A stretch of 64,000 bases of DNA, taken from assembly GCA_965203465.1 (NCBI GenBank), contig CBDBCR010000003.1:736001-800000 (forward strand), given 5' to 3'. The notes under the pieces are model-generated. The model did not search any database. It saw only the letters and a program-made list of their open reading frames with translations, and was not told the origin of the DNA. This stretch comes from Nitrosopumilaceae archaeon. GTDB lineage: Archaea > Thermoproteota > Nitrososphaeria > Nitrososphaerales > Nitrosopumilaceae. The position numbers and the translations under genes are program-made. Positions 4,879 to 40,063 of the stretch are shown here, piece after piece (the stretch's first letter is position 1; each line of letters begins with the position of its first letter).

Positions 4879-5037
4879 GGCATGGCTGCGAGTGCCCTGT
4901 ATTTAAGTCGCCTTTGGAGGCGATCGCGGGGCACTGTTGCGAATTCGGGGGATAAGCCTAGATTAGGCACGGCCTCCCCGATCGCCCAGGGCACCCGTTC
5001 TTGCCGGTATCTAGAGGCACAAATACGGACTGGTAGC

Positions 5038-5247
5038 ATGCCGAGCGTGGAATACGACGCAAGAGGCGTGTGCTCGATGCACGGCAACCCGTACGCGGCG
5101 GTCGAGTCGATCATGCGCTGGGATCACTTGAGCTTGGACGAAGCTGTCGAAGCGGTGAGGGCCGCAGGCGGCAAGGTCGGACAAAGATACGTGGACAATT
5201 TCAGGCGGCTACAGGCCAAAGCTAAACGCGCTTCCTCGTCTGAGTGA
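5038..5247 (+). CDS. Small hypothetical protein (69 aa) inside element A
   Basis: ATG 5038 MPSVEYDARGVCSMHGNPYAAVESIMRWDHLSLDEAVEAVRAAGG...; natural-looking composition, unlike the GC shadow frame upstream. Confidence 0.5.
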   Translation: MPSVEYDARGVCSMHGNPYAAVESIMRWDHLSLDEAVEAVRAAGGKVGQRYVDNFRRLQAKAKRASSSE

Positions 5248-6138
5248 GGTACCGGCTCTCGTTCTGGATCATTGTCCGCCACTTGTCGGCCCCCTCGATG
5301 AAGATCTGGCTTCCTCGCCCGGAGTCCGCTTGAGGGACTGGTGCTTGCGGGCGTGGTTGTGGTTTACGCGGATGCCGCAGAACTCAGTCGTATGCTTGCC
5401 TTGGAGGTCCCTGAAGGTCTTTTCGCGGTCGCGTATCGTACCGTTGAGCCGCTCCATCCTGTTGTTGTTGTCCTTGCCCTTTTTGGGGCCGGTGATGTGT
5501 ATCTCGCGCACGTGCTCCGTCATGGGCATGACCTCCTCGGTGGCCACCCGGTACGAGTTGAGGCCGTCCGTTATCATCCTGGCCGGTATCTTGCCGGTCT
5601 GCTCCAGCGTATCCTTGAACAGTTTGGTCGCGTCGTGGCCCTCCTTGCGGTCGGCTAGGTCCGACGCGAGTCAGTACCGCGTGTCGTTGTCCGTCGAAGA
5701 GAACAGGTACATCAGGTCGCCGGCCACCTTCACGTAGAGCTCGTCCGCCCTGTAGTCGCTGCCGGTCTCGGGCCTTTGCCTGTCCATGTAGGCGGCGACA
5801 GGGCCGTACCGCTCGATCCACCGGAATATTGCCGACCTGTCGGTCTTGATTCCCTTTACCTCGAGGTTCTCGGCTATCTTGCCGGCCGAGAGGCCGGAAA
5901 AGTGCAGGCGCAGGCATTCGGTTATGACGGCCCTCGAGTACCGCCTGTACCTGAACCCGAACCTCGCGGAAAACTTGCGGCCGCAGTCACAGCACTTCAT
6001 CAGTTGGGTGACGCCGGGCTTGTTCTGGCGTATACCGTTCTTGCAGATGTGCCTTGAATTGCAATACTTGTACTTTGTCGGTGTGTCGTAGTTCTTTACC
6101 GTCTTTACGTATCGCTCCATGCCCCGTATACAGGCCAT
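5222..6138 (-). pseudogene. IS6-like DDE transposase, disrupted
   Basis: Zn-ribbon/HTH, YRADELYVK, ITDGLNSY and NNNRMERLNGTIRDRE motifs. In-frame TGA at 5671-5673 where the intact paralogue has W (DTRY*LA vs DTRFWLA). Further frameshifts near the 3' end. Confidence 0.88.
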
Positions 6139-6152
6139 GGTAATAGAAACAT

Positions 6153-6190
6153 TAGGTAAACCTATTGGTCAACCAAGGAAATAGGTAAAC
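6153..6190. promoter_or_regulatory. Candidate operator in the divergent tnp/abrB promoter
   Basis: Palindrome TAGGT-AA-ACCTA (6153-6164) and a second TAGGTAAAC (6182-6190) in an AT-rich spacer. Confidence 0.4.
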
Positions 6191-6219
6191 TGAAATAAGC
6201 CCGGGTTGCGCCGCCCTGC

Positions 6220-6411
6220 ATGGTAAGGGAAGACTTGGCTGAGACCGTAATGGCCTTGGCCGTATCGAAAAGCCGATCGCTCCGGACGACAGTCCCCATA
6301 CACGTGGCCCGACAGTTGGGCCTCGAGCCGGGCTCCCGCGTAAAGTGGGACATGGACAAGGTGAAAGGGCGCTGGACGGCGACGATCTGCAAGGCGGGTG
6401 AGAGGGCGTGA
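6220..6411 (+). CDS. AbrB/MazE/SpoVT-like DNA-binding protein
   Basis: SLRTTVPIHVARQLGLEPGSRVKW swapped-hairpin signature. Confidence 0.85.
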   Translation: MVREDLAETVMALAVSKSRSLRTTVPIHVARQLGLEPGSRVKWDMDKVKGRWTATICKAGERA

Positions 6412-6506
6412 GTCTGTACTGGATAGGCGTGTTAGCCGTCATCGGGTTTGCGGGTGCGGCCGTACTCTCGCACACAGTACAATCGCTGTCCCGCCTCGGA
6501 CAGTAG
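6408..6506 (+). CDS. Putative 32-aa single-transmembrane peptide
   Basis: GTG overlaps the abrB stop (GTGA): MSLYWIGVLAVIGFAGAAVLSHTVQSLSRLGQ. Below the ORF-track cutoff. Confidence 0.4.
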   Translation: MSLYWIGVLAVIGFAGAAVLSHTVQSLSRLGQ

Positions 6507-6592
6507 GCCCGAAACCCCTCCGCCTTCAGGCAGATTTTTGAGGCTGATTTTTCGCCGATCGGCAGAAGGTTTTTCAAGCGTCGTTTCCGCGC

Positions 6593-7529
6593 ATGGGTCA
6601 TATGGGCAAACGCGGCGGAAAACTTACGGCGGCCAGTCTGTTTTCCGGAGCCGGCGGACTGGATCTGGGCTTCGAGCAGTCTGGAGTCCGCGTCGTCGTG
6701 GCCAACGATTCGTGGGACATGGCGCTGGAGACATACAAGACGAACAGGGACGGAAAGACCGAGGTGCTCGTGGGCGCGCTGGAAAAACACGCGAACGAGA
6801 TCGCCTGCTTGGCGCAGAACGCCGACATCGTGTTCGGCGGCCCCCCGTGCCAGGACTTCAGCCAGGCCGGATGGAGGACCGGGGACGGGCGCAGGGCCGA
6901 CCTCACTTCATCGTTCGTCAAACTGGCGCTGAAAATACGACCCGAGTGGGTCGTCATGGAGAACGTCAACACCATCATGTCGATCGGCAGGCGCCACGCA
7001 GAGTACGCGATCAAGGCGCTGGGCAGGGCCGGATACACGGTCACTACGAGGGTGCTCGACGCGGCCGACTTCGGGGCTCCCCAGTACCGCAAGCGCTTCT
7101 TCCTCATAGCCCGAAAGGGCTCGCACAACATGCTCGGGCTCGCCGAGTCCATAGAGAGAGAGAGAGAGAGCGCCGCTGACCGTCCGCCGGTACTATCCAG
7201 CCATAAGCCGCGGAGCCCGGGGCACTGAGTTCTACTACAGGCATCCGTGGAGTTTCGAGCGCCGCGCCATATTCAGCGTGGACGAGCCCAGCCCCACGAT
7301 ACGCGGCGTGAACCGGCCGATCCCCCCGAGCTACAAGATACACCGCAACGACGCGACGGACGACCTCGGCCTGGTCAGGCCGCTCACCACCGAAGAGCGC
7401 GGCATATTGCAGACGTTCCCGAAAAAATACGAATTCGTCGGGAACAAGACGGAGCGGGAGCAGCAGATAGGCAATTCGGTTCCGCCGGTCCTCGCCAAGG
7501 CGGTGGCCAGCGCGATCGTGAGGATGTGA
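6593..7529 (+). CDS. C5-cytosine DNA methyltransferase (M.HindV-like), frameshifted at an (AG)9 tract
   Basis: SLFSGAGG, GGPPCQDFS, MENV, PQYRKRFF in ORF 6593-7228. The target-recognition region (YYRHPW..IFSVDEPSPTIRGVNRPIP) and motif X (QQIGNSVPP) continue in another frame after the tract. Confidence 0.92.
7153..7170 (+). repeat. (AG)9 simple sequence repeat inside the C5-MTase
   Basis: Counted directly. (AG)7 or (AG)10 restores the reading frame. Confidence 0.95.
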
Positions 7530-7530
7530 C

Positions 7531-8514
7531 ATGGCCGACGAAAGCCCTGAACTGTTCGGCATACACCGATCCAACGTAGAGTCCATGATGAGCAAGAACA
7601 TATTCACCACGTTCTTTCCCGTGGCGACCGCGCTGTACTTGTCGAGCAAGGGGCGGCCGGTCAAATACCTCCGCCTCCGCGACGGCGATTTGGACATCGA
7701 CGAGATTCTGTTCGAGCGGGCGATAGGCGTGGATTCCGGCGACCTGCGGCGCGTCGAATGGAACAGTGAGATACACCCGGACGCATTCGCCAGCAGCCCG
7801 AACGCGCCTCCGATGGACATGGTGCCCACCTTGGACGGGGAGCAAAAGCTGGAATTCGAGGTCAAACTAACCGTGGTGCCTACGTTCAACAAGAACAAGA
7901 CTACCGAGCTGATAGTGCGTCAAAACACCGAATTCTCGCTGGCCGAGAGGATGGCGTACAGGCACCACGACTTGGTTGACGTGCGGCCGATAACGAACGA
8001 CACGCTGCGCGGCGCGATTCGCGACGAGAGCCGACAGCTACCCTTCATACTCCACGGATTGTGGAAGACGGAAGGCACCAGCATGGTTCTGGACGAGATC
8101 AACGCCACCGACGCCTATTTCATAAGCGACTTTGCGTATCTGAAAATACTGCTGGACAAGTACGACCGGCACCCGCGCGAATCATCCCGCGTAGGCAAAG
8201 TGGTGCGGCTGATACGCAGCTGGATAGGGTGTTATCTAGAGAGCGGAAGCATGCGGTACAAGGAGGACAGGGCCAACGTGGAGCACCTGAAGGTCACGAT
8301 TTATCCCACCGAACACCAGAAAGACCTGCAAAGAAGCTACGAAAACCTGCGCCTGTCGGTGAAAGACCTGTGGAACATAGTCCCCGACGATTCCATACGG
8401 CGAATGTCCCCGGAAAGGAGGCTCGACGCGGCCATGTTCGTCAACTGGATGATACAGACGATACTTAAGCGGGAAGAGTCGGCGGAAGCAAGGGACGGCC
8501 GAAGTTTCACGTAA
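7531..8514 (+). CDS. Type II restriction endonuclease, HindVP-like
   Basis: Starts 1 bp after the MTase stop. FEVKLTVVP and C-terminal MSPERRLDAA motifs resemble the HindVP family. Confidence 0.75.
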   Translation: MADESPELFGIHRSNVESMMSKNIFTTFFPVATALYLSSKGRPVKYLRLRDGDLDIDEILFERAIGVDSGDLRRVEWNSEIHPDAFASSPNAPPMDMVPTLDGEQKLEFEVKLTVVPTFNKNKTTELIVRQNTEFSLAERMAYRHHDLVDVRPITNDTLRGAIRDESRQLPFILHGLWKTEGTSMVLDEINATDAYFISDFAYLKILLDKYDRHPRESSRVGKVVRLIRSWIGCYLESGSMRYKEDRANVEHLKVTIYPTEHQKDLQRSYENLRLSVKDLWNIVPDDSIRRMSPERRLDAAMFVNWMIQTILKREESAEARDGRSFT

Positions 8515-8609
8515 AGCCGCCCGTCAACGAGGCCACGCGGCGAATATCACCAGTCCTATGGCGGCCACGACCGCCGCGGCGGCCAACTCTTTCGCGTGTT
8601 CGAGCGGGA

Positions 8610-8975
8610 TCATTCCGCCTTCTCAATGGCGGCGTAGTCTACCTCGTTTATCTTGACGATCCCGCTCGCGAGGTACGCCCCGTAATGGTACGGGTTCTTT
8701 ATGATCGACAGCGCGTCCAGCAGGCCGCCTATGCTCACGGGCTTTTTCATCACGCGGACTTTGCGCAGCGGTATGTGCTCGTCTTTGACTTGGCCGGCCG
8801 CGACCGCCGTCGCTATGAACGCGCGGCCTTCCTTGCCTCCGCGGTATACGGTGAACCTATCCCCGTCCCGGATATGCTTGACGTGCGGTGTCCGTGGGTT
8901 CACCGGCCACGAGGCCCCGCGCAGCCGCTTGTCTATCTCCGCGTCCGTGTCGTTCACGACCAGTATGTAGTCCAC
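8610..8975 (-). CDS. EVE-domain (PUA-like) protein
   Basis: W..KHIRDGDRFTVY..FIATAVAAG..KPVSI..LSII..GIVKINEVDY pattern. Confidence 0.75.
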   Translation of the reverse strand: MDYILVVNDTDAEIDKRLRGASWPVNPRTPHVKHIRDGDRFTVYRGGKEGRAFIATAVAAGQVKDEHIPLRKVRVMKKPVSIGGLLDALSIIKNPYHYGAYLASGIVKINEVDYAAIEKAE

Positions 8976-9283
8976 TGGCGGCGGACGGCAACCGAGTCGG
9001 TTTAAGCTTTGGGCTCAGATCGCGTGCCTAGCCGGGGCTACCCCACGAATTGGAAACAGTGCCAATCGGTTCGGCGCCCCGGAATCCGGCCCCTAGGCAC
9101 GGCCTCCGGGGGTTTTGGACAGCCGGGGAGCCCGGCGCGGGGCCTAGCCCGCCCGAGCGCCCGAGCCGAGCCGATCGCCCACGGGCCCCCGGCTCACTCC
9201 ACCAGCTCTGCCCCGTACAGGCGGGCTAGGTCGCGCCTCCTGGTGCGGAACTTGGTCCGGCGGTTCCCGATCCCGCCGGCCTC

Positions 9284-12907: not shown

Positions 12908-13010
12908 CCCCGCGCCCCGGGGCGGCGCACTATTATGCGTATCTGGCCAGATGTTTGAAATGTCCCCACTCACGGGGACGGCTCGGATCCGGCCGCGCGT
13001 TCGCCTGTGC

Positions 13011-13397: not shown

Positions 13398-13398
13398 G

Positions 13399-13893
13399 CT
13401 ACCTCGAGTCTCGCCCTTCCCGCACCGCCCGTACTACGTCTTCTTTGCTTATTTTTGATCCCAGTGTGTTGCGGATCCATTCCAAGTCAGACTCCATCTC
13501 CCTAGTCTTGCCTTCGTCAAGCGCGCGCTCCCTGGCGCGCTCGCGCGTCCGCAGTTCGTAAAGGAAGTTGACGCGGTTTTTGAGTATTGCAAGTTCCGCT
13601 TTCAACGGCGCAGTTTCGGCGTCAGATACCTCTCTGATCGCCTCCTCCAAATACCCTCTGCCATGCCGTGACATGCTGACGAGCCTTAGGGCGAGCACCA
13701 GATCGCGTAGATCAAACTGAGGCGACGCGTCGTATCGTTCTGATTCCGATTGTGCTCGGCCAAACGTCTCCATGAAGCCAGACCAAATAGGATCAGGTTG
13801 CATAGGTTGGAACTTGTCTAGAACGAGATCAGGTTTGAATGGCTTTGCTCCGCCGTCCAGCTCGTGTTGCGTACGTTTGTCTGCGAGCGTCAT
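13399..13893 (-). CDS. Putative antitoxin (VapB-like C-terminus) with a long unknown N-terminus
   Basis: Ends 1 bp before the PIN gene. C-terminal ISKEDVVRAVREGRDSR resembles archaeal VapB tails. Confidence 0.6.
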   Translation of the reverse strand: MTLADKRTQHELDGGAKPFKPDLVLDKFQPMQPDPIWSGFMETFGRAQSESERYDASPQFDLRDLVLALRLVSMSRHGRGYLEEAIREVSDAETAPLKAELAILKNRVNFLYELRTRERARERALDEGKTREMESDLEWIRNTLGSKISKEDVVRAVREGRDSR

Positions 13894-22240: not shown

Positions 22241-22268
22241 GGAAGCATGTAATCTCCGTCAGTTGTGC

Positions 22269-22463: not shown

Positions 22464-22535
22464 GCATTTTGTTAAAAATATTTTGTTCACGTGGTTATAT
22501 GCTAGTCCGACCGGGATTCGGGCACGGACAGGAAA

Positions 22536-23671: not shown

Positions 23672-23860
23672 CCGGCGGGCGCGGCGCGGGCGGCCTGAAT
23701 CCGTGCGGGTTTGCGCGCGCGCAGGCCGCTCCGGCGGCTTCCCGGCCCGCTCGGGGCGCGGTTTTCTGGATCATGACGGCATCCGCAGGACGGTCTTGCG
23801 CCCGATCTGTCCGGGTAGATCCCGCTCAGTCAATCTAGCAGACGAATACTACATGCTTCC

Positions 23861-24051
23861 CCCACCACGTGCTCGAACCTGCTGGTCGTGGCGCCCGGGT
23901 ACGTCATGTACGCCATGGAGTTCTGCCGCACCCTGTGTAGCCTCACAAAGAGCGGCAGTTGGATCAGATCGTATTCTGCGCAGGTCATCGGCACGTATCC
24001 GTGGACCGGATCCTTGATCACCCGCGCAGTCTCGATCTTGGTGATTTGCAC
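23861..24051 (-). pseudogene. N-terminal fragment of an HD-domain (dNTP triphosphohydrolase-like) protein truncated by element B
   Basis: IKDPVHGY..LIQLPLFVRLHRVRQ..YPGATTSRFEHVVG, followed directly by IS sequence. Confidence 0.85.
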
Positions 24052-24217
24052 GGCGCGTTTGCCGCGCGTTCTGTAATAAGTGTAGATCTGGTCCATAGTA
24101 CCGAAAACCGACCGCCGGGCGGACTTGGCCGTTCCGGCGGGCACGGAGAATTTTGCCTAGCCCGCCACACGCCATGCAAGCGCGGTGCAGTCTTCCACGA
24201 TCGGTAGAATAGACGGC

Positions 24218-27200
24218 CTACCGTTTCTTCCGTTTGGCGATGGTATCCGAGAGGCGCTCGACGACCTCGTCCTTTCTGGATCCAAGACCCAGCACGTCAA
24301 ACACCGCCCCGTCCAGCCTGTCTTGATCCAGCGTCTTGCAGTACGACTTCCACGCCTTGGCCATTTGGTTCCTGCCCGCCGCGTCCAAGACCGCCATGTC
24401 GGGCACCTGCATCATCGCATAGTCTTCGACCTGCATCTTCAACGCGCCCCCTCCCATGGGGTGACCCACGACTTCCATGTGAAGCGAAAACATCGACGAC
24501 CGGATGTATGCGAGAAGAGGGTGCAGGTGCGTGCTGTCGCGGGCCTCGAAACAGACCCAGGTATCCAGCGCGCCGAACCTGGTGGTGCCGACTCCGTCTC
24601 CGTTTTCGACCACCTTGTGCCTGTCGTTGCTGATGGCGCTCAAAAACGCATCCGGCGTCCCCCGCGTGTTCATGTAAAACCAGAACCGCTTTTTCCTGAG
24701 AGTCGGCGATTCTGCCGGTATCTTGCCAGACCCGTCGGGGAACTTTCTGGTCTCGCCTTCCCTGATGTACCTGATCAGTCCTTTTGCGTCCTTGTCGCGC
24801 AGGAGATCGGCCATTGGCGAAGTCACTGCCAGAATGTACTTGCCCGCGTCGCTGTTGCGCACTTTTCCGCTTATCGTCGACTTGGGCAGCAGGACGGGAT
24901 GGAGGAACTTTTCGTGTATGCCGTACTCTTCAATTGTGTCGGCGCCAATCACAAAGTAGCTGTTAAATTTGGTAGATACGCCGCTGAACAACTTGCCCGT
25001 CTTGCCGAGCGCGGACATTTTCACCGCGGGTTCGGGTACGGCATCCATGAAGTGTACTGCCCACTTTTCGTCCCCGAACTCGTTCTGGCCCTTTTTCTTG
25101 TATGCAAGGTTTGAAAACAGGCCTCCCTCGTTCACGGCCGCGTATCTGACGACGTTGTTTCTGCTCCTCCCCTTCGTCAGTATCGTGATCACCGTCTTTA
25201 CGTCTATGTTCTTGAACACGTTGTAGTCCGGCTTTAGCATGACGTTGATGTCGCAGTTGTCCGCGAGCATTCTCTTGAGGGACTTGCCGTACGAGAAGCT
25301 CATCCAGCTGTCGCTCACGATGAACCCCAGCCTCCCGCCTGCCTTTAGCCAGTTCAGCGAATGGTAGTAAAAGTACGACGACTTGTCGGCCTTCTTGTCT
25401 ACGAGTCCCGCGCCTTTCAGCGTGTTGTTTCTGGGCAGCTGCATGCAGTCCTTGTCGGAGAGCCGCTCCTGCCTCACGTACGGCGGGTTTCCGATTACGA
25501 CATCAAAGCCGGGCATGACTCCCACCACGTGGTCCTTGTTGGCGCAGACCTGGGGAAAGCCGCGCTCGCCGGCCCAGTCGAACGGACGCTCGCCCCCGGC
25601 GCTGCGCGTCAGGATGGTGTTCCCCCGCCGTATGTTCTTCGACAGATCCGGAAGCTTTCTTCTGCTTCCCGCGATTTTGAAGAACATCGCAATCCTCGAT
25701 ATTTCGACGGACTGCTCGTTTATGTCGATGCCGAATATGCATTCCTCGATTATTTTTCTGGCCACGCTCTGTTCAAACGCCATCCCGAACGTCTCGTTTT
25801 TTGACGCGGCCCCCTTCTTGCCGCCCAATTCGACCTCGTACGCGCCCGCGTCTTTCTTCTGCTCCAGTATCTCGTTGTGCACGTCGAGCAACACGTCGAC
25901 GGCCTTCACCAAAAACGCGCCGGAGCCGCAAGCCGGATCGAGTATCCTTATCGACCTCAGTCTTTCCTCGAGTGCGCCCAATTCTCCGTCGTACTGCTCT
26001 ATGAGATCGCGGGTGCTCGTGGTGTCGGGTTTTCTCGCCAGGTACGGGATTATGGTCTGCCTGCACACATAGTCCGTGACGTACGGAGGCGTGTAGTACA
26101 CACCCATCTTCTTCCTCTCGGACGCGTCCGCATCCATGAGCCTGTCAAGATCGTCGAGCGACTGTTCGAATATGTGGCCGAGTATGTTTACGGTCAAATC
26201 TGACTCGAAATCATACCGCAGCATCGAAAGCACGCCGGTTATGATCGGGCTGAGGTTCTTTTCAAGTACGTCGATCTGATCTTTGGCGTACTTGAGTTCC
26301 TTTTCCGCGGTGTTCGGAAAGTACTCCTTGGGCCGCATGTCCAGGAACTGTGCTTTGACAGGCCACGACTTTGTGAACAGGCCTCCGTTGAACGCGAAAA
26401 CGTCCGGGTTTTTGTGTCCCTCCGCGAACCACCTGAACACCTTGTCCATGGCGTTGAAGACCACGCTGGTCGAGCCGTCGATCTTTTTGTTCCCGATGCT
26501 TTTCTTGATCTGATCGTACAGCAGGCGTCTGCCTACATAATCGTTGGATTCTGCGAACATCACGAAGATCAGGCGGTTCAAGAATGACTGCGCCTGGTCT
26601 ACGGCGGTGCTTCGGTCCACGCAACCCTCGAACTCTTTTACGAGCATGAGGCGCGTTCGGTGGAATATGTCGTAGAATTCCTCCTCGAGATCCTTCTCGA
26701 TCTCGTCCGCCGTCGCCCGGGTCGCTTCCAGCGAATTTTCGCCGATCATGTGCGCCTTTGAGAATATCCAGACGAACTCCTTCAGCCGGTATTCGCTGTC
26801 CCGTATGGACGAGAATTCGAACTCGTAATGCTGGCACCGGCCGACATCGTACTTGAACAGGATGAATTTGTCATAGTCGGTCACGATCCCGTACTTTGGT
26901 ATGATCTCCGACATGTACCACCACAGCTGGCCGACGGCTCCGTTCTTGTTCTGTGGCGTAGGCTTCCACAGGTCCGTGCCTTGTCCCTTGGCTTCTATGC
27001 AGACGGCTGTTTTTCCGTCCGGACCGGCAATCTGGAACTCGATGTCGTTCTGCTGGAACTTTACGTCGTCCGTCAGCGAATAACCCAGCACGCCCTCGAG
27101 TATGATTTTCTGGAAATTCGTGTAGTTCAACTCCTCCTTTTTCAACTTGCCCCTCTCGAGCATGTCCAGCCACTTGTCTTTGGCCTTCTTGGCGGCCCTG

Positions 27201-27277
27201 TCCAACGCGACGTTTTCAGACAGTTTTCTGATCGCCCTGCGATTCAGCAGCGTGTTTTGCGACGCCACCGCGATCAC
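24218..27277 (-). CDS. Type IIG (Eco57I-like) fused restriction-modification enzyme
   Basis: CIEAKG, ILGHIFEQSL, RKKMGVYYTP, ILDPACGSGAFL, DVVIGNPPYVRQE, C-terminal specificity region; intact, 1019 aa. Confidence 0.92.
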   Translation of the reverse strand: MIAVASQNTLLNRRAIRKLSENVALDRAAKKAKDKWLDMLERGKLKKEELNYTNFQKIILEGVLGYSLTDDVKFQQNDIEFQIAGPDGKTAVCIEAKGQGTDLWKPTPQNKNGAVGQLWWYMSEIIPKYGIVTDYDKFILFKYDVGRCQHYEFEFSSIRDSEYRLKEFVWIFSKAHMIGENSLEATRATADEIEKDLEEEFYDIFHRTRLMLVKEFEGCVDRSTAVDQAQSFLNRLIFVMFAESNDYVGRRLLYDQIKKSIGNKKIDGSTSVVFNAMDKVFRWFAEGHKNPDVFAFNGGLFTKSWPVKAQFLDMRPKEYFPNTAEKELKYAKDQIDVLEKNLSPIITGVLSMLRYDFESDLTVNILGHIFEQSLDDLDRLMDADASERKKMGVYYTPPYVTDYVCRQTIIPYLARKPDTTSTRDLIEQYDGELGALEERLRSIRILDPACGSGAFLVKAVDVLLDVHNEILEQKKDAGAYEVELGGKKGAASKNETFGMAFEQSVARKIIEECIFGIDINEQSVEISRIAMFFKIAGSRRKLPDLSKNIRRGNTILTRSAGGERPFDWAGERGFPQVCANKDHVVGVMPGFDVVIGNPPYVRQERLSDKDCMQLPRNNTLKGAGLVDKKADKSSYFYYHSLNWLKAGGRLGFIVSDSWMSFSYGKSLKRMLADNCDINVMLKPDYNVFKNIDVKTVITILTKGRSRNNVVRYAAVNEGGLFSNLAYKKKGQNEFGDEKWAVHFMDAVPEPAVKMSALGKTGKLFSGVSTKFNSYFVIGADTIEEYGIHEKFLHPVLLPKSTISGKVRNSDAGKYILAVTSPMADLLRDKDAKGLIRYIREGETRKFPDGSGKIPAESPTLRKKRFWFYMNTRGTPDAFLSAISNDRHKVVENGDGVGTTRFGALDTWVCFEARDSTHLHPLLAYIRSSMFSLHMEVVGHPMGGGALKMQVEDYAMMQVPDMAVLDAAGRNQMAKAWKSYCKTLDQDRLDGAVFDVLGLGSRKDEVVERLSDTIAKRKKR

Positions 27278-31910: not shown

Positions 31911-31982
31911 TCGGGGGCCCGGCTCTCCGGTCTTCGGCCGCCGGCTGCGCGCCAGAGCGCGGACCCGGCGAGGAAACCGCGC

Positions 31983-32169
31983 TACCTCGAGTCGCGGCCT
32001 TCCCGCACCGCCCTTACGACGTCCTCTTTGCTTATTTTCGGTCCCAGCGTGTTGCGGATCCATTCCAGATCGGACTCCAGCTTTCCGGTCTTGCCTTCGT
32101 CAAGCGCGCGCTCCCTGGCGCGCTCGCGCGTCCGCAGTTCGTAAAGGAAGTTGACGCGGTTTTTGAGTA
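31983..32169 (-). pseudogene. 3' fragment of a paralogue of the antitoxin gene at 13399-13893
   Basis: Highly similar DNA to 13399-13586; ends at the TA of the IS630 end. Confidence 0.85.
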
Positions 32170-33318
32170 TAGTATCTTAGATTGACATTCGGTAGTTTTT
32201 TGGCACGAATGATCAGACCGTAAGATAGTCATGCATCTTTACGATTTTGATGCGACCGGATCTTAGAGCTTTCAATACTTCCCTTTTCAGCTGCCCGATG
32301 TCGTCAAAAAACTGGTTGGCGATGTAGCGCTTGACCTCCCTCCACTGGGCTTCGATCGGCACAAGCTCTGGGGTGTACTTGGGCAGGAACCGCACGACGA
32401 TGCCGCCGTCGGTTTTCTCGTACAGCCTCTTGAACACGGCCTCGCTGTGGTACGAGGCGTTGTCCGTGTAGACAAGCAGCTTGCCCATCTTTTTGTACGC
32501 CCTTGTGAGGAACGCCTCGACGTTCTCTGCATTGCCCGTGTCGCAGAACTCGAAGTAGCTCTGGCCTCCGGCCCCTACGACTCCGAGCAGGGTGGCCCGG
32601 CCTTTCCGCCTGCTCGTGATGTCGACCCTGACCTGTTCGGCGCGCTTGCCCTTCCTCCTTTTCTTGCGGTACCATCCTTTCCGGACTATGCTCTGCATGG
32701 ATACGTGCATTTCGTCAAAGGAAACGGCCAGATGCCCGCGCCCAGCGTAGATTGCTACGGTTCTGTGAGCTTTTTTTTGAAATCCTTGATTTCTGCCGGA
32801 GACGCCCCCCGTACGTCGCGGGGCGGGGCTTGATGTACACGAAGCCCAGCCGGTTCACCAGATCCCAGACGGAGTGGACATGGTACTCTACGCTGAACTT
32901 TTTCTTTATGTGCGTCCTGATCAGCGGTATCGTCCAAGCACCAGATCCGAGTCCGATCGCTGCGGGACCAGCTTCCAGATCCCGCTCGAGCGCCTTGATC
33001 TGGCGCTTGGTGAGCTTGCACGCTGCCCCTTTGTTCTTTATGTCGCATCTCTTGTTCAGGCCGTTCTTCTCGATGTTCCTTATCCAGTTGGTCACCGTGC
33101 TGCGCGGAATGTTCAAGCCCTTGGATATTTCCGCGATGGTCTTTCCCTGCTTCCTTTGTATGCATACCACCAGCCTGCTTTGTGCCTTTGGATCTTTTTC
33201 CTTCCGATGCATGTCGCACAGGCGGGCCATGTTCACTTTGGGAAGAAACCTCCTCGCCATGGGGCCCCCCCGGCGTGCCGCTATTTAGATCTTTACCCAA
33301 AGTCAATCTAAGATACTA
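32170..33318 (-). mobile_element. IS630-family insertion sequence
   Basis: Perfect 17-bp TIRs TAGTATCTTAGATTGAC, flanked by TA on both sides (32168-69 and 33319-20). Confidence 0.93.
32213..33260 (-). pseudogene. IS630 transposase (HTH orfA + DDE orfB) with an A8 -1 frameshift site and an extra inactivating 1-bp loss
   Basis: orfA WTIPLIR..KPRP; TTC-AAAAAAAA-G slippery site; orfB SFDE, DNASYH, FLPKYTPEL.PIE..W. Confidence 0.88.
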
Positions 33319-33429
33319 TACGACTCCCCGATCTTCGCGCGTGGCGGAGGCGATCGCCGCGGCGCCAAAGGCGGGGGCCCGCGCGGGTTCGGAATTTAAG
33401 GCCGGCAGCAATCCAGAGTCTGCGGGCGC

Positions 33430-33957: not shown

Positions 33958-35220
33958 CTAATCACCCAGCAGGCACTGCACATGCATCTCCCCTATGTCC
34001 ATCTCGCTTTCCAAGAACGACTGCACCTCGCTCTCCTCGGATGGGCGCGTGATGAGCGAAGAGCCCGAATCGCCCCTGCTTATCAGCAGGAGTCGGTCTA
34101 TTCCCGATTGCCTCACGATTTCGGGGCTGTGCGTTGTGATGATGATCTGTTTGCTGGACGATGCGTCCTTCATCATGTCCACCATACCCGAAAGCAATGC
34201 AGGGTGCACGCTCCTTTCTGGTTCTTCGATCACGGCGAGCTGCGCGTCTTCGAAATACAGCGCCACGACCAGCGCTACCGCGTTGGTAGTGCCGTCCGAT
34301 ACCAAAGCTGCCGGCAGATGCTTGCCTTTGGAATAACTCTCCTCCGTCATAAACACCAAGGACTTGTCCACCGTGCTTTTGACGCCAAGGGACTTTACGA
34401 ACGGGAGTATGTCGGATGTCAAGTTGTTGAATTGTCTTCTTTTTTCAGCGTTTGACAGTATATCCCTCAGCACTAGCGGAAGGTTGGAACCGTCGGTCTC
34501 CAGTCCGAGCCTGCCCCCTATGGCGGAGGGCCGTTTTGCTAGTTTTGGGGCAAAGTCGTAGATTTCAAGCTGGCTGAAGAAATAGCCTACCCACGGGAAC
34601 ATGATATCTACGACTATGTGCGATTCCAAAATGGACTTGTTCTTGGCGGTCTTTGATCCGTATCCGTACACTGTCCTGTATAGATTCAGTTGTTTTTTGG
34701 ACACGATGTCGATGGGAAAGTCGGGCTCGAAGAACAGCTTGCCGTTTTCCGACTTTATGTTCAGTATGCCGTCTATGCGCCCTTTCTTGTTGGTGCCGTC
34801 TATGCGCCCTTTCTTGTTGGTGCCGGTCATGTAAAAACGCCACGCGTCGGACAGGATCTTGAACCCCGACCTCTGGCCCATCTCTATTTCGAAACTCCAT
34901 TTTACGTGCGTGTTGTGGAGCACGTATTGTTGGTTGGACAGATTTCCGGGGAGCGGTATTTCCGGAAAGTCTATTTCCAGCTCGATCGACATGCGGTTGT
35001 CGCCGTTGAAATTCCGCACGTATTCGATCCCTCCCTGGATTGCCAGCGCGTCGGCCAGTCCCCCGCGCATGTCTTTGAGAAACTGAAAGATCTGCCCAAA
35101 GTTGGACTTGCCCGAAGCGTTAGAGCCCACTAGCACATTGAATTCTTTGAACTCAACGTCCAAATCTACAAAGCTCTTGAAATTGTGCACCTTCAGCCGC
35201 TTCATGAACGCCTCGCGCAT
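33958..35220 (-). CDS. ABC/AAA_21-type ATPase, copy 1
   Basis: HNFKSF, GSNASGKSN (Walker A), VSDGT signature, IEEPE (Walker B), ITTHSP. Confidence 0.92.
   Translation of the reverse strand: MREAFMKRLKVHNFKSFVDLDVEFKEFNVLVGSNASGKSNFGQIFQFLKDMRGGLADALAIQGGIEYVRNFNGDNRMSIELEIDFPEIPLPGNLSNQQYVLHNTHVKWSFEIEMGQRSGFKILSDAWRFYMTGTNKKGRIDGTNKKGRIDGILNIKSENGKLFFEPDFPIDIVSKKQLNLYRTVYGYGSKTAKNKSILESHIVVDIMFPWVGYFFSQLEIYDFAPKLAKRPSAIGGRLGLETDGSNLPLVLRDILSNAEKRRQFNNLTSDILPFVKSLGVKSTVDKSLVFMTEESYSKGKHLPAALVSDGTTNAVALVVALYFEDAQLAVIEEPERSVHPALLSGMVDMMKDASSSKQIIITTHSPEIVRQSGIDRLLLISRGDSGSSLITRPSEESEVQSFLESEMDIGEMHVQCLLGD
34767..34825. repeat. 27-bp in-frame tandem duplication in the ATPase
   Basis: Encodes GTNKKGRID twice. 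Confidence 0.92.
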
Positions 35221-35587
35221 GAGGTGCCGGCCCGTCACTACAATTAATATCTATACCGCGATCCCGGATTCCGGCAAATCCTGGTGAGCCGGGGCCCGGT
35301 GCGGAGGTACGGCCCCGTCGATCGGGCGTTTTCACGCCGGCTGCGGCCGGATCCGGCCCCGGGCCCCAAGCGCCCGAATCCGCAGCTCTCCGCGGGGGAG
35401 TTCGCCCCCACGGTTTAAGTGAGGCGCGCAGAAAAGGCCGGCAGTGAAGGTCAAAGTAAACGTCAACGTCCTCCCCTTCGGGCACTACAGGACGGAGGAG
35501 GCGCAGTCCGAATCGACCGTCGAGATTGCCCCGACCCCCATAATAAAAGACTACACGTCGGGTTCTGTGTAATCAGCGAGACCCGGC

Positions 35588-36709
35588 CTAGCCCGCGTGG
35601 AGCCGGTGCAGGGCCGCGTTCTGGATCAGCGTCTTCCAGCGATCGGGCCCGTCTATGTCTATCAAGGCCGCGTCCGAGGGCGTCCGGCCGCCCAAGCCGC
35701 CGTGCTTTTTGACGCAGTTGTAGTGGGCCTGGAACCCCGGTATCAGCGGCGTGTGGAACTTCTTGAGGCCCCGGAAATTCACCTCGCGCTCCCGCACCGT
35801 CCCGTTGAGCCGTTCCATCTTGTTGTTGTTCATCTCTTTCCGCAGGTGGATGTACCGCCAGTGCTGGGTATCGGGGCCGAACACCCTGATGCTCGACTTC
35901 ATGTAGTTGGGCAGCCCATCGGTGACGAAGTGGGCCGGCGCCTTACCCAGCTTCCGCTTGGTGGCCTCCAGCAGGTTGTCCGCGTCGTGCTGGAACTTGG
36001 TCTCGGCCATCTCGGCGGCCAGCCAGAACCGCGTGTCGTCCTCCATGGAGCCGAACAGGTACTTTAGTTCGCCGGCTATCTTGATCCAGACCTCGTCGGC
36101 CCGGGCCATGGCCCGGTCGGAGGTGCGCGGCACCACGTCGTGCAGGTATTCGGATACGGACTTTGAATACTCGGCTACCCAGTTGTATATGGTCTTGTGT
36201 GATATTTTGACGCCCTCGGTCTCGAACTCGTCCGCTATATCCCGGACGCTCATGCCCTTGTAATACGTCCGGACGGCCCGGGTTATCGTCTTGGGGCGAA
36301 AGTGCTTCTTTTCGAACCCCGGGTTGTCTGTAAACCTGCGGCCGCAGTCGCCGCACTTGAGCAACTGCACCGGGCCGGCCTTGGTCTTGCGCGTGCCCTT
36401 CTTGGCTACGTTGCCCGAGTCGCAGAACTTGCACACTTGGCGGCCGGCCCTTTCCATGATCCGGAACGGCGCCCGCTTGAAGAGTTGGTTGCGGCAAAGC
36501 GCCCGCAACACAACCTTGATGTGCTTGCAGTCGGCCCCGCGGGTCCGGTGATCCGGGCACTCGCAGACCAGCCCCGAGCCGGTGCGCTTCACCTCGTACC
36601 TCTTGTCCGGGTCCGTCTGCGAGCGGACGCTGAACGTGTCCGGATCTGACTGGCCGGCCGCGCCGGCCTGCTTGAGCATCTCGACTGCGCGGGCGGTGCG
36701 GGCGTTCAT
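35588..36709 (-). CDS. IS6-like DDE transposase with N-terminal SWIM finger and Zn ribbon, intact
   Basis: CECPD..CKH, CKFC..CGDC, HTH (ISHKTIYNW), ARADEVW, FVTDGLPNY, NNNKMERLNG. Confidence 0.93.
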   Translation of the reverse strand: MNARTARAVEMLKQAGAAGQSDPDTFSVRSQTDPDKRYEVKRTGSGLVCECPDHRTRGADCKHIKVVLRALCRNQLFKRAPFRIMERAGRQVCKFCDSGNVAKKGTRKTKAGPVQLLKCGDCGRRFTDNPGFEKKHFRPKTITRAVRTYYKGMSVRDIADEFETEGVKISHKTIYNWVAEYSKSVSEYLHDVVPRTSDRAMARADEVWIKIAGELKYLFGSMEDDTRFWLAAEMAETKFQHDADNLLEATKRKLGKAPAHFVTDGLPNYMKSSIRVFGPDTQHWRYIHLRKEMNNNKMERLNGTVREREVNFRGLKKFHTPLIPGFQAHYNCVKKHGGLGGRTPSDAALIDIDGPDRWKTLIQNAALHRLHAG

Positions 36710-36721
36710 GCCTGTAGTCTA

Positions 36722-36770
36722 AGGCTAGTCTATTAAAACCTTTAGGGCGACGTATAGACTATTATAGCCT
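36722..36770. promoter_or_regulatory. Divergent promoter with inverted-repeat operator candidate
   Basis: TAGTCTAT (36726-33) and ATAGACTA (36754-61) flank TATTAAAA; outer AGGCTA/TAGCCT. Confidence 0.45.
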
Positions 36771-36788
36771 GCTCTGGAGGAGGGCGGC

Positions 36789-37046
36789 ATGGACAAGACG
36801 TCGCTGGTACAGGTCAACAAGAGCGACTCGCTGCGCACGACGGTGCCCGCGAGCATCGTGAAACTGCTCGATCTGCGCCAGGGCGATCGTGTAGAGTGGG
36901 ACGTGCTGCCGGACGGAAACAGGTTCGCCGTAAAGATCGAATTCGTAAAACCAAAGGACGCGCGAACCAAAGGACGCGCGAACCAAAGGACGCGCGAACC
37001 AAAACCGGTCAGGGCGCCGCGTTCGTCACGGCCGCGGCAATTCTGA
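36789..37046 (+). CDS. AbrB/MazE/SpoVT-like DNA-binding protein
   Basis: SLRTTVPASIVKLLDLRQGDRVEW; GGAGG Shine-Dalgarno upstream. Confidence 0.88.
   Translation: MDKTSLVQVNKSDSLRTTVPASIVKLLDLRQGDRVEWDVLPDGNRFAVKIEFVKPKDARTKGRANQRTREPKPVRAPRSSRPRQF
36949..37003 (+). repeat. 16-bp tandem repeat (AACCAAAGGACGCGCG), 3 copies plus 7 bp, in the abrB 3' end
   Basis: Counted directly. Confidence 0.93.
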
Positions 37047-37079
37047 CCGGCAATTAATTCTTGGCCGGGGGCGGCGCTC

Positions 37080-39896
37080 CTGACCACCAGCGAGCCGACG
37101 GCCAACGCGGCCCTGGCCGAGGTGCTCGACGGCCTGCGCCGGAACTGGTCGGTGAAGGGCGAGCAGATGGGGGGAGTCCTCCGGGGAGGCAAAAGGCCCG
37201 ATCTAATCGCGCTTGAGCAAGGCCGTTCTCCGATCTTAGTCGAAGTTGAATTCTCACCCGCGGCAACGCTGGAAAAAGACGCGCTCGCGCGCCTGCACAC
37301 CGTCACCAAGGACGGCCAAGAGGTGGCGGCCGTCGTGTCGGTCCGGCTTCCGGCACGGCTCAGAAAAGTCGGCGGCGAAAAACTCAGGAAAGAACTGCGC
37401 GCGGCGGCGGATCTGGAATACGCCGTGTACCAGCCCGGACGGTTCCCGAAAACCGGGTACGTCAAGGGCGGCGTCACAGACATCGCGCAAATTATCCAAA
37501 ATGTGTCGCTGCCCGCCGAAATAATCGGCGAATGGGTGAAAGAGATGAGTGGTGCGATAGAGAGCATCGCCAAACTGCTCGCCGGAAGCGGTAGGGACAC
37601 CAAGAAGAAGATAGCCGATCTTCTGTCGCTGAACGAAGGCAGACAGACCTGGCGCATGGCCGGGCTGATACTGTCCAACGCATTCGTGTTCCACAGCCAC
37701 ATAGCGGGCGAGCGCGGCATAAAGACTCTCCAAGAATTGATCGTCTTGGACACGGTGCCCACGGCCAGCTTGGTGGCCGAGTGGGGCAGGATACTCAAGA
37801 TCAACTACTACGCCATATTCGACGTGGCGCGCAGCATCATCACGTACGTGAAAGACGCGGACGCGGAGGACATCATACGGGTGCTGCTGGACACGACCGG
37901 CAAGATCAACGCGCGCGGCCTGTCCACGTCGACGGACATGTACGGCACGCTTATCCAAAAAATGATCGAGGACCGCAAGACGCTCGCCTCGTTCTACACC
38001 CTCCCAGAATCGGCCGCGCTACTGGCCGGCCTGGCCGTCCCGCCAGCAGGCTCCGACGTCTATTCCTCGCCCGAATCCATGAAAGAGTTCAGGTTCGGAG
38101 ACTTTGCGTGCGGGACGGGCGCGCTGCTGACCACGGCCTACAAGGTGCTGATCGCCAACTACGAGGCGGCCGGCAACGATATGCGGAAGATACACGATTC
38201 CATGATGGGTGGGGCCATATTCGGGTTCGACGTGCTGCCCAGCGCCGTCCACCTGACCGTATCGTCGCTGGCCGAGATATTCCCAAAAAAACTGTTCACG
38301 GAGACCAAGGTCGGGAAGCTCTTGTACGGAAGGCGCGACTCCGAGTTGCGTCTGGGTTCGCTGGATCTGATCTCCAAACAGAGCACTCTGGGTGGGGGAG
38401 GCGACTACGTGACCGGTACGGCATCGGACACGTTCTTCAGCCCGACCGTACCGGACGGCTATTTCTCGCTCGTCTTGATGAACCCGCCGTTCACGAGGAA
38501 CGCCAAAGGAGGGGCAGATCGTCACGCAATGTTCGCGTCGTTCGGCACGGACAGGGACGATCAGAGGAAAATGGCGGCAATGGAAAAGAAGCTGTTCAAA
38601 ACCACGTGCGCGCACGGCAACGCCGGAGCCGCGTCCAACTTCGTGGCCATCGCCGACAAGAAACTCAAGCCGGGCGGCGTGTTGGGCTTGGTGCTGCCGT
38701 CCACGATAGCGTGGGGTTCGTCGTGGAAGGCATGCAGGGATCTGCTGAAGGACGGCTACGAGGATCTGACGGTGGTCAGCATCGCCGCGTCCGACATATC
38801 CACCATGGCGTTTTCATACGATACGGACATGGGCGAGGTTCTGGTGGTGGCACGCAAACGCGAGCGTCCGGCCGACGGGCCTCCGCGCGGCCGGTTCGCA
38901 TCGTTGCGCAGGCGCCCGGAATCCGTGCTCAACTCAATCGAATTATGCAAGGACATACTCAACTCGAAACCGAACAGGCTCGACGGCGACAATTACGGAG
39001 GCACGCCGCTCAAGGCGGGCCGAGACGTACACGGAAGCGTGCTGGACTGCCCGCTTGACGATGAATGGTGGTGGCCAGTGGCCGTGCGGGATCAAAACCT
39101 GATCCAGTTCATGTACCGCCTGTACCGCGGACAGTTCGCGCTTCCGAATCCGTTGTGCGGATCCGGTTCGATTCCCATGACTAGGGCGGGAGCCAACTTC
39201 GGCTTGGTGGGAAGGGACATAGCGGACGGCAAAGACGACTGCAAACGCGCCCCCTTCACGAGTCATCCGTACGACACGGGCGCGGTATACCCCGTCTTGA
39301 TGAACAACGATTCAGACAAACAGACACACATGATGGTCAAGCCCGACTGCATGGCAATCCCGAAAACATGCGCCAAAAAAGAAGACGTGGTGAGGGTGGC
39401 CGCGGACGCCACGCGCCTGCATGTCAATAGCACGTGCAGATACACCAGCCAGCGCGTGTTGTTCCCGTATACGGCAAAACCCACGCTTGGTTCGTCCGTA
39501 TTCCCGTCATTCAACACAGCGCCGGAGCACGAGAAGGCCATGGCGGTCTGGGGCAACAGCACGCTTGGAATACTCTGTTTCTGGACGCATGCAGGCAAAC
39601 AGCAACTGGGCCGCGGAAGGGCCAGCAGAACGTCTATGGAAAACATGGCCGTGTTGAACGCGCCAAAACTGAAAAAAACAGCCTTGGCCAAACTCGACAG
39701 GATATTCGACAAATACTGCAAAAAGGAATTTCTGCCAATGAACCTTTGCTACAGGGACGAAAACAGGATGGCCATGGACGCCGAGATGCTCGCGGCCCTG
39801 GGCATCGACGAGCCCATAGACGATCTGCGGGTACGGTTCTGCCGCGAGCCGCTGGTGCGGAGCGGCCGGGAGGATCCGGAGCTGGACGCGCTGTAG
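37080..39896 (+). CDS. Type IIG-like fused REase-N6 MTase, cargo of transposon C
   Basis: RPDL..ILVEVEF nuclease-like N-terminus, LASFYT, DFACGTGALL, LMNPPF. Start is CTG 37080 or GTG 37122. Confidence 0.88.
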   Translation: MTTSEPTANAALAEVLDGLRRNWSVKGEQMGGVLRGGKRPDLIALEQGRSPILVEVEFSPAATLEKDALARLHTVTKDGQEVAAVVSVRLPARLRKVGGEKLRKELRAAADLEYAVYQPGRFPKTGYVKGGVTDIAQIIQNVSLPAEIIGEWVKEMSGAIESIAKLLAGSGRDTKKKIADLLSLNEGRQTWRMAGLILSNAFVFHSHIAGERGIKTLQELIVLDTVPTASLVAEWGRILKINYYAIFDVARSIITYVKDADAEDIIRVLLDTTGKINARGLSTSTDMYGTLIQKMIEDRKTLASFYTLPESAALLAGLAVPPAGSDVYSSPESMKEFRFGDFACGTGALLTTAYKVLIANYEAAGNDMRKIHDSMMGGAIFGFDVLPSAVHLTVSSLAEIFPKKLFTETKVGKLLYGRRDSELRLGSLDLISKQSTLGGGGDYVTGTASDTFFSPTVPDGYFSLVLMNPPFTRNAKGGADRHAMFASFGTDRDDQRKMAAMEKKLFKTTCAHGNAGAASNFVAIADKKLKPGGVLGLVLPSTIAWGSSWKACRDLLKDGYEDLTVVSIAASDISTMAFSYDTDMGEVLVVARKRERPADGPPRGRFASLRRRPESVLNSIELCKDILNSKPNRLDGDNYGGTPLKAGRDVHGSVLDCPLDDEWWWPVAVRDQNLIQFMYRLYRGQFALPNPLCGSGSIPMTRAGANFGLVGRDIADGKDDCKRAPFTSHPYDTGAVYPVLMNNDSDKQTHMMVKPDCMAIPKTCAKKEDVVRVAADATRLHVNSTCRYTSQRVLFPYTAKPTLGSSVFPSFNTAPEHEKAMAVWGNSTLGILCFWTHAGKQQLGRGRASRTSMENMAVLNAPKLKKTALAKLDRIFDKYCKKEFLPMNLCYRDENRMAMDAEMLAALGIDEPIDDLRVRFCREPLVRSGREDPELDAL

Positions 39897-40063
39897 GATG
39901 CCGGTCACGGGTCTCGCTGATTACACAGAACCACACGTCGATATCCGAATCGGTTACCCTGCAGTAGGCCGGCCTTTCCCCGCCTCCGGCCGCGCGCAGA
40001 ATCCGGGCGGCCAACGCCCCAAGCGGCTCGCCGGGCGCGCCGACCCCGGGCGTCCCGCGCGGC

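Follow-up and report, generated by a model that had tools for sequence, protein, structure and literature searches.

Which kind of mobile element brings together, three times within one stretch of archaeal DNA, a transposase gene, a small divergent gene and, in two of the three cases, restriction-modification (R-M) genes? The stretch, hereafter the window, comprises 64,000 nucleotides of a Nitrosopumilaceae archaeon (GenBank assembly GCA_965203465.1, contig CBDBCR010000003.1; C3:736001-800000 of genome G000), whose genome measures 2.26 Mb and has a G+C content of 65%. A preliminary description had reported that the three loci, here called elements A, B and C, share a head-to-head module of a transposase gene and a small gene, each with self-matching ends, and had proposed a family of transposons with interchangeable defence cargo. 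All three end pairs were recovered, and A, B and C are real members of one family, which confirms the observation. Furthermore, we consider it highly probable that they form an archaeal branch of the IS6-group DDE transposons, built from three exchangeable modules and moving their cargo as units. The features of element C, the intact copy in the window, are the following.

35553 to 35560: left copy of the target duplication, ACACGTCG, 8 bp, directly left of element C
35561 to 39932, strand not applicable: element C, 4372 bp, an intact cargo-bearing transposon with 25/25 ends and an 8-bp duplication
35588 to 36709, minus strand: tnpC, an intact 373-amino-acid transposase with PF13610 and NF033587 matches
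36789 to 37046, plus strand: abrC, an 85-amino-acid type-A AbrB/MazE-like protein (PF04014, E-value 1e-6)
37122 to 39896, plus strand: cargo of element C, a 924-amino-acid N6-adenine methylase-domain protein, type IIG-like
39933 to 39940: right copy of the target duplication, ACACGTCG, 8 bp, directly right of element C

The inverted ends of C (35561-35585 and 39908-39932) are identical at all 25 positions. Contigs from four public runs, belonging to four studies, were compared with positions 34000-41500 of the window. Those of run X7 span both junctions of C without any difference, so X7 holds the same insertion. Contigs lying inside C in X3 (record 5) and X6 (record 21) depart from the window exactly at 39932, another X6 contig (record 17) departs at 35560/35561, i.e. 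exactly at the left end of C, and beyond the ends of the element all three continue for 278-1162 letters that are unlike the window. Since they diverge precisely at its ends, C sits in other surroundings in X3 and X6. One X3 contig, in addition, follows the left flank as far as 35559, and its next 30 letters correspond to 39940-39969 at 25 positions (by eye); with moderate strength, this appears to be an empty site in which the target occurs once. In run X3, 15 out of 4287 letters differ within C, as compared to 61 out of 1008 in the left flank, which fits a recent spread of C among diverged strains.

The C transposase combines a SWIM-like CxC..CxH motif, a zinc ribbon of IS1/IS1595 type, a helix-turn-helix and a DDE domain. 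Its cargo protein, previously described as a type IIG-like enzyme, gave weak matches throughout (Eco57I at an E-value of 8e-4, PADLOC type IIG at 2e-6), contains the motifs FACGTG and NPPF, and has N6_Mtase/Eco57I proteins of 900-975 amino acids as its nearest Atlas clusters. The matches point, weakly, to an N6-adenine methylase core, and the domain and PADLOC scans recovered no endonuclease domain. At the DNA level, the C-terminal tail of abrC (36948-37000) corresponds to some 3.4 units of a 16-bp tandem repeat, of which three frames are used, and it is unlikely to be a conserved domain. At 35267-35290, 270 bp left of C, lies a solo end (GATTCCGACAAATCC...) that belongs to a second element type, the one represented by elements H and I (below).

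Element A has the same layout and different, partly decayed, contents.

4930 to 9063, strand not applicable: element A, 4134 bp, a decayed cargo-bearing transposon with 21/25 ends
5269 to 6138, minus strand: tnpA, an IS6-type transposase pseudogene with an in-frame TGA (5671-5673) and a broken 3' end
6220 to 6411, plus strand: abrA, a 63-amino-acid type-A AbrB/MazE-like protein, divergent from tnpA (PF04014, E-value 5e-6)
6593 to 7529, plus strand: C5 cytosine DNA methyltransferase, frameshifted (6593-7228 and 7278-7529; PF00145, E-value 1e-42)
7531 to 8514, plus strand: HindVP-like type II restriction endonuclease (PF09519, E-value 8e-17; PADLOC REase_II, E-value 4e-16)
8610 to 8975, minus strand: open reading frame (ORF) of 121 amino acids, possibly EVE/UPF0310-like (NCBIfam PRK00809, E-value 1e-5; PDB 2p5d, a UPF0310 structure, E-value 0.89)

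The motifs IX and X of the methyltransferase fall in its second frame. Out of the three cargo genes earlier attributed to A, the methyltransferase, though frameshifted, and the endonuclease were recovered, while the EVE/UPF0310-like label of the third is a weak suggestion, as no Pfam match was obtained for this ORF. Outside the window, the same backbone is found in element D (C3:312218-316652, 4435 bp), which has 33/34 ends and is flanked by the 8-bp duplication GGGCAGGG. D encodes an intact transposase with 87-90% identity to that of A and an AbrB-like protein with 60% identity to abrA, and its cargo consists of an N4/N6-methylase gene (frameshifted as assembled) and an ORF of 357 amino acids. 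As A and D share their ends and have near-alike transposases but differ in cargo, one backbone carries different R-M systems within one genome. The family had also been said to fall if the ends of A were not reproduced in other copies; D reproduces them, with an 8-bp duplication. The reported position of the R-M genes in A and C, downstream of the AbrB-like gene and in its orientation, was found in D as well.

The TGA codon of tnpA corresponds to a tryptophan codon (TGG) in the sister transposase of D. Read-through or recoding of this TGA was rejected, as D has TGG there and the 3' end of tnpA is broken too. One member of a set of paralogous minus-strand genes (4095-4912, 40045-40813 and 42143-42868; 76-85% DNA identity, about 225-255 amino acids) abuts the left end of A, and another lies 185 bp right of C; none of the three genes had a Pfam, NCBIfam or PADLOC match.

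Element B consists of the transposase gene and the small gene only, and its previous description as empty is thus correct.

22241 to 23860, strand not applicable: element B, 1620 bp, empty, dead and without target duplication, with 17/20 ends
22269 to 22448, minus strand: type-B small gene, 59 amino acids, with CTG where copies E, F and G have ATG, and a GTG six codons upstream
22536 to 23671, plus strand: tnpB, a transposase pseudogene with a frame change near 23130, a 2-nucleotide indel relative to E and F

The inverted ends of B (22241-22260 and 23841-23860) match at 17 out of 20 positions, the first 11 of which are perfect, and this type of end recurs in the copies E, F and G. A programmed frameshift as in IS1 was rejected for tnpB, given its two extra nucleotides as compared to E and F, which read through here and are broken elsewhere. 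On either side of B a different truncated gene runs into its end, i.e. a type IIG-like methylase ORF on the left (20131-22272, plus strand) and the N-terminal part of an HD-domain-like ORF on the right (23830-24144, minus strand; HD label by eye), which suggests a deletion or inversion mediated by the insertion sequence (IS) rather than a simple insertion. Just right of B lies a type IIG R-M enzyme of 1019 amino acids (24218-27277, minus strand; PADLOC E-value 2.5e-49), and a 190-bp direct repeat (13398-13587 and 31981-32170) is 91.6% identical between its copies. The window is a dense island of defence genes and mobile elements.

The genome holds about nine copies of such elements. E, F and G are of the B type and empty or truncated, E and F having the small gene and the transposase gene only. 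Element H (C3:897039-898545, 1507 bp) is intact, with 24/24 ends of another type and the 8-bp duplication AGGCCGCC, and element I (C3:499301-500781) is broken and has H-type ends; no divergent small gene was seen in H and I. A second cluster of solo ends, with the end types of A/D, B and C, is found at C1:326000-336000 (L014), and an A-type AbrB-like ORF without a transposase gene at C1:334720-334857. C and D are recent, whereas A and B are decayed. The transposases of A and C are 39% identical and those of B and C 27-32%, so that the preliminary view of distinct members rather than recent copies holds as regards their divergence; what shifts is the emphasis, A and B being decayed pseudogene copies.

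By employing a profile of the transposase, matches at an E-value of 1e-20 or better were found in 172 out of 401 genomes of the window's family, a tally that takes in eight genomes flagged as unpublished, the detailed results resting on the others. Matches occurred in 130 out of 246 high-quality genomes of the family and in 20 out of its 27 genera. The relatives are labelled Nitrosopumilus, Nitrosopumilaceae, Thaumarchaeota and Bathyarchaeia. A pattern scan restricted to a single genome for each species yielded 29 loci, from records of Nitrosopumilaceae type and of Bathyarchaeia. The main set of relatives consisted of 40 of the best-scoring family matches on long contigs, taken with 8-kb flanks. 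Thirty of these could be delimited, with GGTTCTGT-type ends and lengths of 1855-7034 bp, and 20 out of the 30 had a perfect 8-bp duplication. In a first set, 17 out of 25 loci were delimited and eight were dropped before cargo was counted; L087 of the main set duplicates L017 of the first, and L041-L043 and L045, being short partial matches, were left out.

At least one extra ORF of at least 100 amino acids was present in 28 out of the 30 delimited relatives, amounting to 64 cargo ORFs. The Pfam domains identified in these were N6_N4_Mtase (11), N6_Mtase (5), HNH (5), Eco57I (4), GmrSD_N (3), Methylase_S (3) and EcoRI_methylase (2), and restriction or modification genes occurred in 17 out of the 30 relatives (30 chosen ORFs were scanned singly). 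Other cargo included NurA, a SocA/Panacea protein, secreted proteins and nested insertion sequences. In the first set, nine out of 17 elements had R-M genes, three in Thaumarchaeota-type and six in Bathyarchaeia records, e.g. methylase-HNH and methylase-Mrr fusions, D12 together with SacI, and type IIG-like enzymes. The architecture appeared to be regular. The transposase gene stops 32-109 bp from its end of the element in 19 out of the 30 relatives, and in 27 out of the 28 that bear cargo, the latter occupies the side of the small gene (exclusively in 23, on both sides in four). Within one genome, L103 and L086 have near-identical transposases and different cargo, as do L088 and L105 (branch lengths 0.014-0.076), with contrasts such as GmrSD in one element and a methylase with HNH in the other. 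The pair A and D and the R-M genes of the 17 relatives bear out the idea of a defence-cargo family with interchangeable cargo. The MmeI-like cargo of L105 is itself interrupted by another DDE insertion sequence.

A tRNA-like gene of 86-90 nucleotides (ARAGORN) was located inside all seven relatives tested (L086, L087, L104, L106, L113, L017 and L022), e.g. at L087:7791-7877, and was called as Leu-CAG/GAG or, with a long extra arm, as 'Ile'-TAT/GAT. Its place is the gap separating the type-B small gene from the transposase gene; it has the same strand as the latter and stops about 45 bp short of the start codon. None was found in the window's own elements. Such a gene might serve the transposase as a promoter or processing signal, or else be cargo.

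The small gene itself turned out to be as variable as the cargo. Homologous transposases do keep a divergent small gene, since such an ORF lies upstream of the transposase gene in 25 out of 29 family loci, but the linkage is not specifically one to AbrB. Four types recur: type B (WKKDATEF...IPKPI) in 11 loci, a coiled-coil type (KGKxYLYY...YCG) in six, a zinc ribbon (...SPYWNK) in five and type A (SLRTTVP, PF04014) in three, with none seen in four. Among the 30 delimited elements, a divergent small gene was identified by pattern in 27 and by eye in L115, distributed over type B (11), coiled-coil (8, one by eye), zinc ribbon (5) and type A (4), with none in two. Bathyarchaeia relatives have a DUF2080-like ORF (L023, below cut-off), a ribbon-helix-helix ORF (L037) or none. 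The type-A proteins of A, C and D score 26.7, 28.9 and 30.1 bits against PF04014, above its cut-off of 24.7. For the type-B protein there was no Pfam match, the PDB profile search gave nothing, and the profile comparison with type A (hhalign) returned a non-significant probability of 1.4%; proof from sequence that type B is AbrB-like was therefore not obtained. Its predicted fold (monomer model, predicted local distance difference test score, pLDDT, of 82) has a beta-beta-alpha-beta-beta order, and MazE, VapB and AbrB chains were the top nine out of nine Foldseek matches, at weak E-values of 0.13-2.6, and such chains lead the list at values of up to 6. The AbrB-like gene that had been read in all three loci is accordingly confirmed in A and C (PF04014), while in B there is a weak resemblance of fold.

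When mapped on a quick tree of 33 transposases, the type of small gene requires 18 changes, as compared to a minimum of four and a mean of 19.1 after shuffling, and four well-supported sister pairs differ in type (L079/L080, L086/L103, L093/L095 and L111/L113). From this scatter and these pairs it follows that the small gene is exchangeable, i.e. neither a fixed part of the backbone nor bound to the cargo. The notion of AbrB as a fixed backbone component consequently had to be given up, as the slot takes any of four unrelated small proteins.

Between small gene and transposase gene, the gaps stand out as islands rich in AT and bear promoter-like boxes, in this G+C-rich genome as well. Direct repeats exceeded those of shuffled sequences in 12 out of 21 gaps, mostly at distances of 28-35 bp. 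The abrA-tnpA gap of 81 bp contains GTTTACCTA twice, 29 bp apart, and the abrC-tnpC gap of 79 bp contains TAGTCTA/TAGACTA three times. Two or more copies of [AT]ACCTA were found in five out of seven type-A gaps, that of A included, and CACGTG or TACGTA was confined to type-B gaps (4 out of 13, those of B and F among them). The three exact gap patterns occurred in none of eight coiled-coil gaps, and in at most one copy in three out of 13 type-B gaps and one out of five zinc-ribbon gaps. The core GGTACC was absent from all 35 promoter gaps that were scanned. Such type-specific repeats would fit an element-specific repressor acting on the divergent promoters.

As to the transposase family, tnpC scored 40.4 bits against PF13610 (DDE_Tnp_IS240), above the cut-off of 27, and the tnpA fragment gave a weak match. 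NF033587 (transpos_IS6) was the best NCBIfam model, with 122.5 bits for C and 123.3 for D, as compared to 47-54 for IS1 models. Tblastn against annotated plasmids found the transposases of IS6100, IS26 and IS240 at 24-31% identity. The end tips GGCACTGTTGCG and GGTTCTGTG agree with the GG..cTGTt consensus (PMC7986276). GG tips followed by cTGTt are seen in A, C, D and most relatives (GGTTCTGT...), whereas B-type ends (GGAAGCATGTAA) retain the GG only and H-type ends (GATTCCGACAAA) are off-consensus. The 8-bp target duplication is found in C, D, H and 20 out of the 30 relatives, but not in A and B. Furthermore, C, D and the relatives have their passengers inside the ends, with one target duplication flanking the whole, as in a transporter IS (tIS). 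We conclude that the elements are IS6-related transporter IS or unit transposons, unusual in having cargo as a rule, a swappable small gene and a three-way exchange of modules.

Several points weigh against this conclusion. The 40 relatives are a chosen best-scoring sample and not a random one, and 10 of them (L089, L090, L094, L096, L098, L101, L102, L107, L112 and L114), having no convincing end pair, were dropped before cargo was counted. The NF033587 scores of C and D, as well as those of L017 (114.2 bits) and H (42.7 bits), fall short of the cut-off of 125, and Harmer and Hall, in the accessible part of their text (PMC6807381), would exclude archaeal and long zinc-finger elements from IS6/IS26. 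The empty site is represented by a single contig, whose match to the left flank covers 127 nucleotides only. The tree was a quick one with support from the Shimodaira-Hasegawa-like approximate likelihood ratio test (SH-aLRT) only. As for the gaps, their repeats overlap the AT-rich promoter-like boxes, the shuffles preserved base composition only, and the gaps of C and D have no ACCTA motif. Chance inverted repeats are common, with 25-37 other pairs of such size per region. The end pairs were nevertheless judged to be real, because they lie flush with the genes, have IS6-type tips (GG, then CTGT, in A, C and D), recur in other copies (D for A; E, F and G for B), are accompanied by duplications, and coincide with the contig breaks at the ends of C. 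The absence of a target duplication in A and B also bears on whether A is one unit, or instead an insertion sequence beside resident R-M genes with a chance or solo end at 9039-9063. In favor of the latter, its ends (4930-4954 and 9039-9063) match at just 21 out of 25 positions, its flanks show no clean duplication (GATCGCGG versus AATCGGTT), solo end-like sequences occur elsewhere in the genome and the window is dense in R-M genes. Yet the ends of A match those of D over about 38 nucleotides, the right end matching both D ends well past the core, and the layout of A is that of C and D. A 52-bp direct repeat, moreover, occurs at 3684-3735 and 9064-9114 and nowhere else in the genome, its second copy beginning at the first base past the right end of A, and on the left 22 bp separate the TATA-like GTATTTAAG from the element, as compared to 14 bp at the paralogous uninterrupted site, i.e. 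a difference of 8. The repeat and the shared box suggest that A inserted into a promoter region with a paralogous counterpart and that decay has since erased its 8-bp duplication. We regard a composite origin of A as very improbable.

For the small protein, three roles other than that of a local repressor have to be weighed. It had been proposed as a controller that would couple repression of the transposase to delayed R-M expression in a naive host, in the manner of a controller (C) protein. This agrees with the co-oriented layout of A, C and D, which 10 out of the 17 R-M relatives share, and with the type-specific repeats in the promoter gap. However, five of the 17 have convergent cargo and two have no small gene, the empty elements B, E, F, L076 and L092 retain it, and four unrelated proteins occupy the slot whatever the cargo. 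C proteins are also helix-turn-helix proteins, which those found here are not, three T5 tracts separate abrA from the methylase gene, and an AT-rich box immediately precedes the cargo of C. Such coupling is doubtful, and a dedicated R-M controller is not supported; what stands of the proposal is the local repression suggested by the gap repeats. If the protein were instead a cofactor or inhibitor of transposition, acting on the transposase or the ends and with no role in transcription, its tight and wide linkage to the transposase gene would be accounted for, and MazE- and VapB-like domains do bind partner proteins too. The same end sequence, however, goes with different types of small gene (L079 and L087, type B, versus L080, coiled-coil; L076 and L082, type B, versus L084 and L085, type A), near-identical transposases are paired with different types, and the gap motifs were not seen, by eye, in the ends of A, C and D, so that we find this role quite improbable. 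An orphan antitoxin, or one half of an addiction module of the cargo, is brought to mind by PF04014 being the MazE antitoxin family, by MazE and VapB as the best fold matches of type B, and by toxin-antitoxin-like cargo in relatives (SocA_Panacea in L100, UPF0175 in L023). Against it, no MazF, PIN or other toxin gene adjoins the small gene in A, B, C or D, and B, E and F contain nothing besides the small gene and the transposase gene; we hold it to be most improbable.

The reading that we prefer is therefore still that of a cargo-moving unit in which the small protein is a local repressor. It would consist of a gene for a zinc-finger/HTH/DDE transposase, stopping within about 100 bp of one end; a small gene for a protein with a DNA-binding fold, divergent from the former, with a short AT-rich gap and its two promoter-like boxes in between; and a cargo slot between the small gene and the other end, most often filled with R-M genes. 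The whole unit, cargo included, would be inserted by the single transposase acting on both inverted ends, in keeping with the 8-bp duplications that were observed. Replicative copy-in and cointegrates are probable by analogy with IS6/IS26. The small protein would most likely bind the type-specific repeats of the gap and thereby repress both the transposase gene and its own, and it could also set the expression of any cargo that is downstream and co-oriented. R-M systems kill cells that lose them. An R-M cargo could plausibly repay the element both in this way and by defending the host.

If so, cargo, mostly R-M systems, is the norm in a transposase family present in 172 out of 401 genomes of one archaeal family, which offers a concrete mechanism for the movement and swapping of defence genes in abundant marine and sediment archaea. 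The role of IS6-type transposases would be widened to cargo inside one element, in addition to cargo between two copies, and the gaps and small genes provide a candidate natural set of small repressor/operator pairs, next to compact archaeal gene shuttles. A bolder version can be put forward only tentatively, and with somewhat less than even confidence, i.e. that ammonia-oxidising archaea and Bathyarchaeia harbor a large, undescribed class of elements in which one IS6-type transposase shuttles entire R-M systems, the modules recombine freely between the elements of a population, the small proteins and their sites form orthogonal, element-specific repressor/operator pairs by which each element privately controls its transposase, and the whole is a main vehicle of defence-gene turnover in archaea.

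In the literature, thaumarchaeal IS-like transposons with one or two genes were described by Krupovic et al. 2019, according to whom, in the accessible part of the text, passenger-carrying DNA transposons were not detected in archaea (PMC6563490), and passengers go unmentioned in the accessible part of a 2026 survey of archaeal IS (PMC13343696). Neither archaeal transposons of IS6 type that carry R-M genes nor the small-gene slot were found described in the searchable full texts, a body that leaves subscription papers and supplements outside. Like members of the IS6/IS26 family, ISDsp3 and the long zinc-finger clades (h and i of Varani et al. 2021; VII and VIII of Harmer and Hall 2019) among them, the elements have an IS240 DDE domain and a single transposase gene, and with the long clades they share the N-terminal zinc finger and helix-turn-helix; clades h and i come from Clostridia, according to the IS6 review (PMC7986276). 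In the narrow sense of IS6/IS26, a transposase of about 230-260 amino acids close to Tnp26 and a conserved end of 14 bp are required (PMC6807381), and the transposases of 317-397 amino acids with zinc-finger extensions found here fall outside this 2019 definition of Harmer and Hall. Similar to IS6/IS26 are the GG-tipped ends with CTGT and the 8-bp target duplication, whereas the size (about 0.8-1.5 kb in IS6/IS26, 1.5-7 kb here), the archaeal hosts and the second, divergent small gene set the elements apart. An in-element passenger is an exception in the IS6 family, ISDsp3, with a hypothetical passenger, being the sole such member named in the accessible part of the review (PMC7986276), but it is the rule here, and IS26-type elements move cargo between two copies rather than inside one.

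The bacterial R-M units of Furuta, Abe and Kobayashi 2010 (PMC2853133) are similar in having R-M genes inside inverted repeats, 8-bp duplications and an empty site in a relative. They include no archaeal case in the accessible part of that text and were retained only if no mobility gene was linked to them, as opposed to the transposase on board here. With R-M C proteins the small gene has in common its size, its DNA-binding type, its co-oriented position upstream of the R-M genes in A, C and D, and the promoter repeats. C proteins, however, are of the Xre type, while the fold here is of AbrB/MazE or another type, and the small gene is paired with a transposase, present without R-M genes and often convergent with the cargo. 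Types A and B resemble the domains of AbrB, MazE, VapB and SpoVT in size and in their beta-beta-alpha-beta-beta order, but differ in that they lack both a C-terminal part for toxin binding or sensing (the repeat tail of abrC aside) and a partner toxin, and in that type B is unrecognizable by sequence. Lastly, tIS and Tn7-like defence transposons likewise have passengers inside the ends of one transposon, with defence genes dominant among them. As compared to the Tn7-like ones, the elements described here are archaeal, carry 1-5 kb of cargo and have a single small IS6-type DDE transposase in place of a target-selection machinery.

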